Source of the DNA: Escherichia coli
Lineage (GTDB): Bacteria > Pseudomonadota > Gammaproteobacteria > Enterobacterales > Enterobacteriaceae
Length of the DNA stretch: 3,274 bases
Strand: one strand, 5' to 3'
Assembly: GCF_003334405.1 (NCBI RefSeq)
Contig: NZ_QOWM01000035.1
The translations under genes and the position numbers were made by a program. Every line of letters starts with the position of its first letter. The first letter of the stretch is position 1. Below are positions 935 through 3,274 of the stretch, one piece after another. Under the pieces are notes generated by a model. The model saw only the letters and a list, made by a program, of their open reading frames with translations. It made no database searches and was not told where the DNA came from.

Positions 935-960
935 AATGACCTGTGATGGTTTTATATTAG

Positions 961-1240
961 TTCCTGGAGTTGCGCCCGTAGTTCGCTGACGCTCACACGC
1001 GCAGTACAGCGCCCCGTCCAGGGAAATCCTGGACGGCGTAAACTCGCTGGCGCGAGCGCTAACTGCGGCATTCTGCGGCGCAAATCAGCGTCATCGTTGT
1101 CTGCGAGTCAGTCGGGCTTAGCAGGGCGGGAAGGTGGTCGTGGTTCCGGTCGGTTACGGTAGCGGCGTTGCCGCGTTTCGGGGCGATGTGGCTCCTGTGC
1201 TGCCCTGGTATTTTCGTTCGCCCCTTCCATCCGCTTACGC
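961..1240. other. GC-rich non-coding segment of unknown nature (candidate structured RNA, gene relic or recombination-site remnant)
   Basis: Hand count 177/280 G+C (~63%) against ~36% for 1381-1480. Hairpins: CGTCCAGG-gaaat-CCTGGACG (1015-1035) and GCGGC-gtt-GCCGC (1162-1174). 10-nt-period repeats: CTGCGGC at 1063-1069 and 1073-1079, GGTT(C/A)CGGT at 1142-1160. The only ORFs (1059..1262 -, 1168..1359 +) start at TTG with no SD. Confidence 0.4.
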
Positions 1241-1293
1241 GGATTAAAAAACGTGATAACAATCACTTATCGAGTAAAAAAACGGAAGAACAC

Positions 1294-1322
1294 TTGCAAA
1301 TACGACTTAAGGGTCGTATTAT
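1294..1322 (+). promoter_or_regulatory. sigma70-like promoter for the three-gene operon (TTGCAA, 17-nt spacer, TATTAT)
   Basis: -35 TTGCAA at 1294-1299 and -10 TATTAT at 1317-1322 with a 17-nt spacer, about 60 nt upstream of the first ATG. The predicted leader contains a GGGG-aatgg-CCCC hairpin (1336-1348). Confidence 0.45.
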
Positions 1323-1382
1323 TGTTTCATCGAAAGGGGAATGGCCCCTCTCACAATAGCCCAGCAGGGCAGGAGATTTAAA

Positions 1383-1682
1383 ATGAAATGCTCATCTGTT
1401 TTTACTTCAACCACTAATCATGTTTTCACATTCGAACGAGTAACGCTTTGCACTATTATCCTTATGCATAAGGATACGGGACAACAGTATGTTGTCATAT
1501 TTACTGATAACAATAAAATTCGTGACTATAAAACCGGAATTGTTCCTCAGTTTGGCGAACTTAAGCAGAGTGATGTTGATTTAGTCCTTTTCTACAGGGA
1601 CGAATATGAAAAATATTTTGATTCGTTAAAAGATGGCGATGAATGCTTGAGTTTTAAAGATTTTATTGAGTGCCTTCGTTAA
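1383..1682 (+). CDS. hypothetical protein (99 aa), first gene of the operon
   Basis: SD AGGAG at 1371-1375, 7 nt before ATG 1383. In frame with listed ORF 1341..1682, but the 1341 start lies inside the leader hairpin and lacks an SD. No family recognised. Confidence 0.55.
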   Translation: MKCSSVFTSTTNHVFTFERVTLCTIILMHKDTGQQYVVIFTDNNKIRDYKTGIVPQFGELKQSDVDLVLFYRDEYEKYFDSLKDGDECLSFKDFIECLR

Positions 1683-1690
1683 GCATTATA

Positions 1691-1716
1691 AATGCAGGGG
1701 GGAACCCTGCATTTTC
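1691..1716 (+). promoter_or_regulatory. intercistronic stem-loop (possible attenuator or partial terminator, or mRNA stability element)
   Basis: AATGCAGGG (1691-1699) pairs with CCCTGCATT (1705-1713) around loop GGGAA. A short U-run follows, then the SD of the next gene. Confidence 0.3.
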
Positions 1717-1734
1717 CTGAAAGGAGTTGATTTT

Positions 1735-2109
1735 ATGAAAAGTGTTTATGTTGTTGGCAAAGGTTTAATCGTTGCCGGTAATAAAATTACAATCGATGGA
1801 AAAGAGCATGTCTCGGTAGAAAATAGTGAAAACATTGTTGTCACTGATGATTGTATTAAAATTGGTAATAAAACAGTGGTTTTTAAAGGCAGGAGTATTA
1901 AGATAGAAATACATGGAAATGTAAATAAAATAGTAACCGAAAATGCTGATGTCAGTATTCATGGGAATGCTGGGGATGTTGAAACCGTGAGTGGTGATGT
2001 TGATTGTCGTCAGGTTAATGGCGATATAACCACTGTAAGCGGTGATGTTACTTGTGGCGATGTTTCTGGTGACGTAACCACTGTAAGCGGAGATATAAAC
2101 AGAAAATGA
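1735..2109 (+). CDS. Gly/Val-rich repeat protein (124 aa), predicted beta-helix, bactofilin-like
   Basis: SD AAGGAG at 1721-1726, 8 nt before ATG 1735. Product has recurring V-x-G-(D/N)-(V/I) elements at alternating 8-9 residue spacing (VSIHGNAGDVETVSGDVDCRQVNGDITTVSGDVTCGDVSGDVTTVSGDIN). Listed ORF 1666 start is TTG with no SD. Confidence 0.6.
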   Translation: MKSVYVVGKGLIVAGNKITIDGKEHVSVENSENIVVTDDCIKIGNKTVVFKGRSIKIEIHGNVNKIVTENADVSIHGNAGDVETVSGDVDCRQVNGDITTVSGDVTCGDVSGDVTTVSGDINRK

Positions 2110-2417
2110 TCACGGAATCGGATATGCTTACTGAAGCTAAAAAAATGGCAGTAGAGATGATGTTCTGGCCTGCTTGTCCTGTAGATGATGATTATTGTTT
2201 CGACGCTATAATGTATACATCAGTTATTGACAAGAAGTTTGAAGATGAACATGGGGTATATCTTCATCAGGTTTACAAAGAACTATGCTCAACACCTGAA
2301 TTAAAAAAACTTCTAAAAAAGAAAGCAATAAAATTGATTGCTTTTAAGCACGATATTGATCTTGATTCAGCTAACAAGACTTTAATGAAAAATATGCTAA
2401 GGAGGATTGAAAACTGA
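2106..2417 (+). CDS. hypothetical protein (103 aa), third gene of the operon
   Basis: ATG 2106 overlaps the upstream stop (ATGA at 2106-2109), so translationally coupled. Stop TGA at 2415-2417. No family recognised. Confidence 0.55.
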   Translation: MITESDMLTEAKKMAVEMMFWPACPVDDDYCFDAIMYTSVIDKKFEDEHGVYLHQVYKELCSTPELKKLLKKKAIKLIAFKHDIDLDSANKTLMKNMLRRIEN

Positions 2418-2427
2418 AAAACTGAAA

Positions 2428-2457
2428 GTGATCAGGTTGCTGGAACAACCTGATCAC
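2428..2457. repeat. perfect inverted repeat with 12-bp arms and 6-nt spacer (GTGATCAGGTTG-ctggaa-CAACCTGATCAC)
   Basis: Read directly from the sequence. Not followed by a U-tract on the + strand. Flanked by AAAACTGA(A) direct repeats at 2410-2417, 2418-2425 and 2471-2479. Confidence 0.6.
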
Positions 2458-2491
2458 GTTATCGACAATCAAAACTGAATGAGGTTTTTAA

Positions 2492-2629
2492 ATGTCAACG
2501 CGGCAGATCGTACAGCTTGCTGATTCCCTTGTCAAAGGCTGGGAAACCAGAATTCCGGCAATGAAATTTAGTGAATGGGATCAATTCCGGTGGTGGTTAA
2601 ACTACCTGCAAGGGTATGAAATGTTTTAA
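2492..2629 (+). CDS. candidate small protein (45 aa), absent from the supplied ORF track
   Basis: SD GAGG at 2481-2484, 7 nt before ATG 2492. 45 sense codons then TAA at 2627-2629, followed directly by an intrinsic terminator. Product MSTRQIVQLADSLVKGWETRIPAMKFSEWDQFRWWLNYLQGYEMF is Trp-rich and not low-complexity. Confidence 0.35.
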   Translation: MSTRQIVQLADSLVKGWETRIPAMKFSEWDQFRWWLNYLQGYEMF

Positions 2630-2631
2630 AT

Positions 2632-2666
2632 AAAAAAAAGGGGCTTTCTGCCCCTTTGTATTTTTT
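2632..2666 (+). terminator. rho-independent terminator, potentially bidirectional
   Basis: A-run, GGGGC (2640-2644), loop TTTCT, GCCCC (2650-2654), then TTTGTATTTTTT. The flanking A and T runs can extend the stem and would allow termination in both directions. Confidence 0.6.
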
Positions 2667-2693
2667 GACAAAAATGCTATGTGTAACTATAAT
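2665..2693 (+). promoter_or_regulatory. sigma70 promoter matching consensus (TTGACA, 17-nt spacer, TATAAT) for the hicAB-like operon
   Basis: -35 TTGACA at 2665-2670 and -10 TATAAT at 2688-2693 with a 17-nt spacer. A short inverted repeat AACTA-taat-TAGTT (2685-2698) overlaps the -10 and could be an operator. Confidence 0.6.
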
Positions 2694-2721
2694 TAGTTGC
2701 ATATCTATAGGGGATGGATTT

Positions 2722-2970
2722 ATGGGGAAAACAGATAAGCTACTGGCAAAGTTTTTAAACAGTAAAAAAACGTTTGAATGGGATGAACTGGTCGTTTTGT
2801 TTTCCTCTTTGGGATATGTCAAAAAGGAAATGCAGGGGTCAAGAGTGCGGTTTTTCAATGCTGAAATCAATCACACCATATTAATGCATCGTCCACATCC
2901 GGAAAGTTATATCAAAGGTGGTACGCTGAAAGCAATTAAACAGAATCTGAAAGAGGCTGGATTATTATGA
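2722..2970 (+). CDS. hicA: HicA-family type II toxin (mRNA interferase-like), 82 aa
   Basis: SD AGGGGA at 2709-2714, 7 nt before ATG 2722. Product ends in a HicA-like pattern (GS..., HRPHP, KAIKQNLKEAGLL). Stop overlaps the downstream start (ATGA at 2967-2970). The listed 2656 start lies inside the promoter and is rejected. Confidence 0.8.
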   Translation: MGKTDKLLAKFLNSKKTFEWDELVVLFSSLGYVKKEMQGSRVRFFNAEINHTILMHRPHPESYIKGGTLKAIKQNLKEAGLL

Positions 2971-3274
2971 AACATTTAAAATATAAAGGATATTTAGGCA
3001 CGGTTGAACCCGATTTTGAAAATAATGTCCTGTATGGGAAACTGGCGTTTATTCGGGACCTGGTAACTTATGAGGCTTCTACATTAGCTGAACTGGAACA
3101 GGAGTTTAAAACATCTGTTGATCTGTATTTACAGTCTTGTGTGGAGGATGGAAAGGAACCTGATACCCCGTTTAAAGGCGTGTTTAACGTCAGGCTTGAT
3201 CCAGAACTGCATCGTCGGGTAGCAGAAATGGCGATGGAAGAAGATTTATCACTGAACGCCTTTGTTAATAAGGC
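2967..3274 (+). CDS. hicB: HicB-family type II antitoxin, 3'-partial (runs off window end)
   Basis: ATG 2967 overlaps the hicA stop. Frame is open for 102 codons to the window edge. Product starts MKHLKYKGYLGTVEPDFENNVLYGKLAFIRDLVTYEA and reaches a ribbon-helix-helix-like stretch (FNVRLDPELHRRVAEMAMEEDLSLNAFVNK). Not in the ORF track because no stop lies in the window. Confidence 0.8.
   Translation, partial: MKHLKYKGYLGTVEPDFENNVLYGKLAFIRDLVTYEASTLAELEQEFKTSVDLYLQSCVEDGKEPDTPFKGVFNVRLDPELHRRVAEMAMEEDLSLNAFVNK

Follow-up and report, generated by a model that had tools for sequence, protein, structure and literature searches.

A CUP-like repeated leader element in the leading region of an IncX4 plasmid, with a candidate priming signal on the transferred strand

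A segment at positions 961-1240 of a 3,274-nucleotide stretch of Escherichia coli DNA (contig NZ_QOWM01000035.1 of assembly GCF_003334405.1; the whole stretch is called here the window) had been described in a first-pass annotation as a GC-rich island with hairpins and no credible gene. Our analysis indicates that this finding is real and mostly explained: the island belongs to one copy of a leader element that is repeated and widespread on conjugative plasmids. Judged by sequence homology, the element is a divergent member of the conserved upstream (CUP) repeat family, a distant homolog of the CUPs of plasmids pKM101 and R46. Its GC-rich half appears to be selected as a fold of the strand transferred in conjugation (T-strand), and we propose, with our confidence evenly divided, that this half may be a primase priming signal that would give an early duplex promoter and operon. 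A priming signal resembling a G site is the probable function of this half, and it is the new and testable part of the proposal.

The compositional jump of the island was borne out, with 63.2% G+C in the 961-1240 segment against 38.3% for positions 1-960 and 37.2% for positions 1241-3274; the richest other 280-nt stretch of the window reached 46.8%. The first hairpin, previously placed at 1015-1035 with an 8-bp stem, was slightly longer, with perfect 9-bp arms at 1014-1022 and 1028-1036, and the GCGGC-GTT-GCCGC hairpin (plus-strand reading) was present at 1162-1174. On the contrary, the two tandem repeats with a 10-nt period came down to a single weak TRF row (1142-1160, 1.9 copies, score 31) that is not meaningful. 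The absence of a credible gene was also upheld: the open reading frames of the island are 37-67 aa long, begin with TTG or GTG codons and overlap one another across both strands, and none of them matched a family in NCBIfam or PHROG. Furthermore, indels of 1, 2 and 4 nt separate related copies in an 11-copy alignment, so that any reading frame would break. A pseudogene or small-protein reading was rejected on these grounds, and the suggested relic of a higher-GC gene is excluded by them together with the compensatory change at paired positions described below.

The repeated element is longer than the island, extending to position 1382 and taking in the promoter, the 5′ untranslated region (5′UTR) and the Shine-Dalgarno sequence of the downstream gene, a part that had been missed before. 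Its two main divisions are:

970-1382, plus strand: whole repeated element (CUP-like leader), delimited by a pair of copies on the plasmid and by the 11-copy alignment.
970-1245, minus strand: GC-rich structured module (the island; 63% G+C), with a predicted fold on the transferred strand.

A second copy was found as a direct repeat about 2 kb upstream, outside the window, ahead of a gene for a J-domain protein. Window positions 957-1383 were 99% identical to positions 13982-14409 of the locus containing that copy (L001), and the 414 bp at 970-1383 were identical to positions 13995-14409, the only differences falling at 963-969. Each copy stops at an ATG, that of the J-domain gene and that of a 99-aa gene at 1383-1682 (WP_000650311.1), respectively. 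The closest relatives on other plasmids were 77-91% identical, and the genes flanking the two copies of this plasmid are unrelated; complete identity over 414 bp despite unrelated flanks suggests a recent gene conversion or concerted evolution within the plasmid. Among the 11 aligned copies, homology spans from GTTGCGCC (position 970) to the ATG start codon.

Related copies were detected in 672 E. coli records, nearly all of them plasmids; the median number per genome was 2 and the highest 7. In PLSDB, matches were found in 1,191 plasmids; each has 2-6 copies, and these invariably share the orientation of small leading-region genes. The hosts include IncX4 and IncI2 plasmids, an IncI-gamma/K1 hybrid, a pSTEC plasmid (5 or 6 copies), an Enterobacter plasmid and the IncX8 plasmid pHI4320, and the gene arrays behind the copies encode J-domain proteins, XRE-type helix-turn-helix (HTH) proteins, toxin-antitoxin pairs and proteins of unknown function. 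A one-off attachment or recombination scar, as envisaged in the first-pass annotation, does not agree with a repeated element that has two identical copies on this plasmid and a family on more than 1,000 plasmids. The proposed position at a module boundary did hold in that each copy stands at the head of an operon, and CUP repeats have been reported to serve as substrates of recombination in IncN2 plasmids (PMC3490853). An integron attC-like site was dropped by eye, with no formal test, since the GTTRRRY core is missing and no integrase is annotated near the module on this plasmid; it is also disfavored by an element that lies 5′ of genes and carries a promoter. A pattern scan of genome contigs with GCAGTACRGCGCCSCG was uninformative, this pattern being too short and GC-rich, with chance matches in actinobacteria.

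The GC-rich module and the promoter module of the element are separable, each being found without the other. In the IncX2 plasmid R6K (L134, 22700-26000), the same J-domain/HTH array lies between pir and ddp1 with short intergenic regions; R6K lacks the GC module, and all that can be detected is the promoter/UTR part before the J-domain gene. One pSTEC gene is likewise preceded by a promoter-only copy, and in IncI2 the copies before the J-domain gene are missing the central part of the GC module (1006-1169). On the other hand, R46 carries a complete GC module without promoter downstream of repA (L007, 32840-33092), and promoter-less GC modules were also present downstream of repA in the IncI2 plasmid (L003, 1650-1890) and in the pSTEC plasmid (L004, 3300-3545). 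A further weak match was seen at positions 184-316 of the pSTEC locus. A relation to the inverted repeats of R6K oriT and ori alpha-beta was rejected, as the copies studied here are direct repeats and R6K has no GC module.

The window was 100% identical to NZ_CP070012.1, a 32.6-kb E. coli plasmid typed as IncX4, MOBP and MPF_T. All genes of the window are on the plus strand and read toward hicAB, which is followed by an intergenic region, ddp1 (taxA) and the relaxase gene taxC. The minus strand of the hicAB-ddp1 intergenic region contains an inverted repeat, GGACAATCTACT...AGTGGATTGTC, and then TATCCTG/C, in agreement with YATCCTG/Y, which we take to be the nic consensus of RP4-type MOBP relaxases (the slash marks nic). 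The equivalent site of R6K, CTATCCTG/CATCG, is on the template strand of the homologous genes. The nic-like motif and its R6K counterpart therefore identify the minus strand as the T-strand and as the template for the plus-strand genes. This places the window 0.3-3.6 kb inside the leading region, the DNA that enters the recipient cell first. Use of the T-strand as gene template is the arrangement reported for leading regions in general (PMC11541004). No primase gene is annotated on NZ_CP070012.1 or on R46. As a separate observation, the hexamer ATCCTG (the nic core) occurred 25 times in the 21.4-kb locus L001, in comparison with 8.6 ± 2.9 times in shuffled sequences (maximum 18), an excess for which we have no explanation.

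CUP repeats of the IncN leading region were reportedly described in pKM101 by Delver and Belogurov in 1997. R46 has such repeats before ccgD, ardA and ccgAI (about 430-650 bp) and, in a shorter form of about 220 bp, before ardB; their G+C content reaches 70-86%, and they finish at, or a few bases from, start codons. A profile built from seven IncX, IncI2 and pSTEC copies (nhmmer) matched all four R46 CUPs on the right strand (E values of 5.5e-12, 5.1e-11, 5.5e-10 and 9e-6; profile positions 22-341), with colinear blocks at about 53% identity: CCCGTA, CGCAGTAC-GCGCC-CG, GGCTTAGCAGGG-GGG, TCCGGTC, and CCTTCCAT plus a hairpin. The architecture is also shared, with multiple direct repeats of about 400 bp or longer, each before a leading-region transcription unit, a GC-rich upstream part and an AT-rich promoter part at the 3′ end, and genes pointing toward oriT; as in the CUPs, the window element carries its promoter at the 3′ end and stops at the start of an open reading frame (ATG 1383). 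Unlike this shared layout, homology is limited to the GC module, and the promoter, operator and 5′UTR part has no convincing alignment. The hosts differ as well, the window element being found on IncX4, IncI2 and related MOBP plasmids and the CUPs on MOBF IncN plasmids. The profile homology, the colinear blocks and the differing promoter end thus define the element as a divergent CUP family member with a different regulatory end.

The IncN CUPs are described as promoter regions controlled by ArdK and ArdR (PMC5371602, PMC6289460), and according to a 2018 paper the function of the >400-bp pKM101 repeats had not been studied in detail (PMC6294495). The 75-aa HTH protein encoded at 707-931, the only regulator-like protein in the window, showed no similarity to R46 ArdK or ArdR and looks XRE/MqsA-like. 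Regulation of the ArdK/ArdR type was set aside, as no homolog was found and the promoter-proximal part has a different palindrome. Partial R46 CUP matches on IncR and IncF plasmids were remnants truncated by insertion sequences and uninformative. In the literature, we found no paper describing CUPs in IncX or IncI2 plasmids.

In comparison with dinucleotide shuffles, the whole island had a z score of about −3 on both strands, and a 77-nt core at 996-1072 reached −5.4 (minus strand) and −5.0 (plus strand). Twelve copies in T-strand orientation (IncX4, IncI2, pSTEC, E. hormaechei and R46) were aligned, and RNAalifold returned nine helices in which 97.7% of the cells were paired. Compensatory change was seen at 10 pairs, versus 0-2 in controls with one partner slid by 1-3 columns, the covariation coming from only about four independent lineages. 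Among the non-Watson-Crick cells of the minus strand, G·T pairs outnumbered A·C pairs (16 vs 4 overall; 11 vs 1 in the best helices); the plus-strand equivalents of these wobbles are A·C mismatches. Furthermore, the minus-strand fold was 1-3.5 kcal/mol more stable than that of the plus strand in three lineages. Covariation, wobble asymmetry and minus-strand stability therefore point to selection of the GC module as a T-strand fold, whose predicted features are as follows:

1000-1067, minus strand: three-way junction, the minimum free energy (MFE) and centroid fold of 996-1072 (−26.1 kcal/mol); helix P1 pairs 1000-1011 with 1057-1067, P2 is at 1043-1056 and P3 at 1014-1036 (the first hairpin mentioned above).
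1000-1007, minus strand: invariant GTACTGCG (the plus-strand block CGCAGTAC named above), kept in 12 of 12 copies, including those of E. hormaechei and R46.
1114-1125, minus strand: conserved block GGCTTAGCAGG (CCTGCTAAGCC on the minus strand), present in the IncX, IncI2 and pSTEC copies, in R46 CUPs and in R100-type modules.
1157-1174, minus strand: hairpin GCGGC-AAC-GCCGC (1162-1174) and then TACCG (1161-1157), aligning with a hairpin of R100.
1180-1224, minus strand: helix GGGGCGA/TCGCCCC, pairing 1180-1186 with 1218-1224 around about 30 nt, in the MFE and centroid folds.
1229-1244, minus strand: terminal hairpin ATCCGC-GTAA-GCGGAT, with CCTTCCAT before it on the plus strand, 100% paired in the 12 copies.

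The helices of the junction (RNAalifold helices 7-9) were 88-100% paired, with compensatory pairs at five positions. The 1180-1224 helix has counterparts in R46 (GGCGA/TCGCC) and R100 (GGCGG/CCGCC, the latter read by eye from the alignment). In the terminal hairpin, two pairs are swapped between CG and GC in half of the copies, and CCTTCCAT with this hairpin is also found in R100, IncI2 and R46.

The seven-copy profile also matched IncI2, pSTEC and R46 downstream of repA, at sites oriented like repA itself, and those of IncI2 and pSTEC were 88-90% identical to positions 90,134-90,518 of R100, downstream of its oriR. With a T-strand profile of the element built without R100-type rows, the matches were:

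pSTEC, downstream of repA: E 3e-8.
IncI2, downstream of repA: E 8e-7.
R100, positions 90,385-90,515: E 2e-4, the best match in 94 kb.

The matched orientation is that expected for the template of the leading strand. The alignment with R100 (90,263-90,515), IncI2 and pSTEC is colinear over about 250 nt, that is, the whole module, and comprises two units of a hairpin plus GTACTG. In T-strand order, the shared elements are a hairpin followed by GGAAGG, the GGGGCGA/TCGCCCC-type helix, CCGAAG, a hairpin followed by TACTG, CCCTGCTAAGCC, and TTAGCG...GTACTG. The hairpin at 1162-1174 aligns column by column with CCGGC-GTAA-GCCGG of R100, which reads CGGCGTAAGCCGG-TACTG. On the minus strand of the window, the hairpin at 1036-1014 is followed by GGCGCTG and then by TACTG (1006-1002), which is invariant in the 12 copies; the motif is GTACTG when read to 1001, and GTACT is also kept in the oriR-downstream modules of R100, IncI2 and pSTEC.

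This arrangement resembles that of known priming signals. The complementary-strand origin of phage G4 reads GGACGGCGAAAGCCGCCGTCC-CTACTG (CGGCGAAAGCCG...CTACTG), and the primer start annotated in its record is this CTG. The trinucleotide 5′-CTG-3′ is where E. coli primase initiates, and the CTG at 1004-1002 inside GTACTGCG is a candidate primase start. The R1/R100 G site is a G4-type signal used by primase alone. In both the known signals and the module studied here, the fold is on the strand that serves as template for the new DNA, and hairpins are followed by (C/G)TACTG. On the other hand, the module of the window is in a leading region and fused to a promoter instead of lying beside a vegetative origin, it has the additional three-way junction, and its likeness to G4 is at the motif level only. 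The T-strand terminal hairpin at 1229-1244 also contains GCGTAAGC, which fits the 'mini-hairpin' motif GCGNNAGC of the G4 origin (PMC13037366), and the same 8-mer is found in the R100 hairpin adjoining TACTG. This may be a coincidence, as the loops of other copies differ from it.

The AT-rich 3′ module (about 1246-1382) resembles a conventional expression signal, with the following features:

1294-1322, plus strand: sigma-70-type promoter TTGCAA-17-TATTAT, found by consensus scan; CTTG...TATTAT is kept in all copies.
1299-1320, no strand assigned: palindrome AATACGAC-TTAAGG-GTCGTATT in the promoter spacer and −10 box, with perfect 8-bp arms.
1332-1352, plus strand: stem-loop GAAAGGGG-AATGG-CCCCTCTC in the 5′UTR of the mRNA, conserved, with changes on both arms.
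1371-1385, plus strand: Shine-Dalgarno sequence AGGAG (1371-1375) and ATG (1383-1385) of the 99-aa gene; CAGGAG is invariant in all copies.

The palindrome is probably an operator. Its arms co-vary among copies (ACGAC/GTCGT, ACATC/GATGT and AGGTC/GACCT). The array of the pSTEC plasmid combines two arm variants (at least three exist overall) with two HTH regulator genes that differ from each other, a hint that repressors and operators may be matched in pairs on that plasmid. In the 5′UTR hairpin, the G·T pairs of the IncI2 and pSTEC copies fall on the plus, RNA-sense strand (alignment read by eye), and for this reason the hairpin fits an mRNA structure.

The proposed priming by the GC-rich half can be laid out step by step. 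The T-strand enters the recipient 5′ end first, so synthesis of its complement has to be discontinuous and to run back to the first-entered end. Conversion of the entering strand by repeated priming has been reported for F (bioRxiv 10.64898/2026.01.09.698686). In the case studied here, the minus strand of the window would enter as single-stranded DNA with its 5′ end leading, and the GC module (970-1245) would fold into hairpins and a three-way junction resisting coating by SSB. The fold would then offer a hairpin-plus-TACTG signal to the host DnaG primase, as the G4 origin and the R1/R100 G site do. The primer would grow in the plus direction through the island into the promoter (1294-1322), the 5′UTR and the operon; the corresponding direction would be away from repA beside oriR, and toward promoter and gene in the window. 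The operon would become duplex and transcribable within moments of entry, when no plasmid repressor is yet present, resulting in zygotic induction. Expression would be shut off later on by a plasmid repressor with the promoter palindrome as its site of action, the adjacent XRE-type HTH protein being the obvious candidate. More tentatively, and with somewhat less than even confidence, we suggest an establishment strategy in which a priming signal for the host primase, with the G site of vegetative origins as its ancestor, was duplicated into the leading region and joined there to a repressible promoter, so that second-strand synthesis would license first expression; such a 'prime-then-transcribe' cassette would be common to IncX4 and IncI2, the epidemic vehicles of mcr-1, and to IncN plasmids.

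Several observations weigh against the priming role. The wobble asymmetry reflects few events, as only about four independent lineages contribute to it. The GC module is not essential for transfer, as the functional IncX plasmid R6K lacks it. After the hairpin at 1162-1174, R100 and the pSTEC copies read TACTG, whereas the window copy reads TACCG, and the invariant TACTG of the window is base-paired in helix P1 of the predicted fold, whereas the G4 start is drawn unpaired. Pairwise similarity to the G4 origin consists of a 12-nt hairpin core plus TACTG, with a z score of about 1.5 that is not significant alone; pairwise local alignments of G4 with R100 or with the window were accordingly set aside as not significant on their own. 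Finally, the match to the G site is ambiguous in position: this site reportedly lies about 400 bp downstream of the 188-bp oriR, according to work by Masai and Arai in 1989 and by Bernander and colleagues in 1992. Counted from the right end of oriR (dnaA box at 89,845), the R100 TACTG motifs at 90,263 and 90,430 are at +230 and +398 bp. Depending on the reference point, either of them could presumably fit that position, and both are inside the homologous module.

Other explanations account for part of these data. The module might have a role in duplex DNA only, as a landing pad for a repressor or nucleoid protein or as a GC-rich barrier to H-NS spreading across the AT-rich leading genes, and also as homology for operon shuffling. 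This is consistent with the ArdK/ArdR control of IncN CUPs noted above, with the H-NS and Hha homologs encoded on the plasmid, with the gene conversion suggested by the 414-bp identity of the two copies and with the CUP-CUP recombination invoked for deletions and inversions (PMC3490853, PMC5371602). However, a duplex role leaves unexplained the compensatory changes across helices up to 70 nt apart, the one-strand excess of G·T over A·C and the promoter-less homologous copies beside oriR/oriV, and the known ArdK site is a short promoter sequence and not the GC part of about 275 bp (PMC6289460). We consider this explanation unlikely.

A comparably low probability is assigned to a new class of single-stranded-DNA promoter, similar to Frpo, in which the folded T-strand itself would be transcribed before its complement is made. 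The Frpo/ssi elements of F and ColIb-P9 and the class 2 and 3 promoters of pESBL are, like the element studied here, repeated GC-rich T-strand structures of about 300 nt before leading-region operons, and they too have been proposed to serve early expression and to help priming of the complementary strand. Size and G+C richness are thus similar. The element also has the place and orientation required, being directly upstream of operons of the leading region for which the T-strand is the template. In addition, new classes without sequence similarity to Frpo were recently found in pESBL and F (PMC12672017). Nevertheless, BLASTN (word size 7) against the published Frpo, ssi1-3 and ssiD sequences gave nothing better than E 0.7, and there was no match in R100, whose leading region should carry class 1-3 promoters. 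The sole good −35/−10 pair (1294-1322) is outside the folded GC domain and pairs only within its own 8-bp spacer palindrome, with no distal complementary arm to rebuild a duplex on the T-strand; the GC module, moreover, is also found without promoter or gene, beside replication origins. The Frpo hypothesis was rejected on the lack of BLAST similarity and of a fold that rebuilds a duplex-like −35/−10 in the window, and expression here would instead use a conventional promoter after local conversion to duplex.

It is also quite improbable that the fold acts as a roadblock that halts complementary-strand synthesis and keeps the entered leading DNA single-stranded for longer, like the ssp2 stem-loop of F (bioRxiv 10.64898/2026.01.09.698686). 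A stable GC-rich multi-helix structure on the template strand would suit such a function, and F provides the precedent. Yet the downstream promoter looks like the ordinary duplex type, so that delayed conversion would delay expression, no single-strand promoter that could benefit from the delay was identified, and, beside oriR, the homologous module occupies a place at which synthesis is reported to begin and not to halt.

The structured non-coding RNA proposed in the first-pass annotation stood as a structured non-coding element, the wobbles putting the fold on the strand antisense to the genes, and not as an RNA: a leader or processing element on read-through mRNA of the upstream operon, or an antisense small RNA, would agree with the strong fold on both strands and with the absence of a terminator between the upstream HTH gene and the island, but is hardly likely given that an Rfam scan of both strands had no covariance-model match at E ≤ 1, that no co-oriented gene lies upstream of the other copy on this plasmid (copy A), that the island has no flanking minus-strand promoter or terminator for the strand that the wobbles favor, and that homologous copies lie at replication origins, outside transcription units. 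A scan for tRNA and tmRNA (ARAGORN) found nothing.

Some features of the remainder of the window deserve mention. Ahead of hicA there is a perfect consensus sigma-70 promoter, TTGACA-17-TATAAT (2665-2693), directly preceded by an 8-bp GC-rich hairpin (2637-2657) that is flanked by T-runs and resembles a bidirectional terminator. Between the 97-aa gene and a 45-aa open reading frame, a hairpin with a 13-bp perfect stem, GTGATCAGGTTG-TTCC-CAACCTGATCAC (2428-2457), scores as a minus-strand terminator and could be a further T-strand structure. The 124-aa product of the gene at 1735-2109 is rich in repeated G-D-V/I-T motifs and matched PHROG 3163 (function unknown; E 1e-21). Its counterpart by position in an IncX4 record (417 nt) is annotated as 'tail-associated lysozyme' and looks mis-annotated.

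The colistin-resistance gene mcr-1 is carried mainly by IncX4 and IncI2 plasmids, whose establishment after transfer is said to be largely unexplored (PMC8744291). Early expression on F and IncI1 plasmids is explained via single-strand promoters, none of which was detected here for the IncX4 and IncI2 plasmids. Should the priming role be wrong, the island would still be an ordinary member of a widespread repeat family and not an anomaly. If it is right, the element would account for the quick conversion and expression of leading operons on such plasmids, and it would give a function to the GC-rich bulk of the >400-bp pKM101 repeats, described in 1997 and still called unstudied in 2018 (PMC6294495). 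It would also provide a short, conserved and strand-specific target for blocking plasmid establishment.

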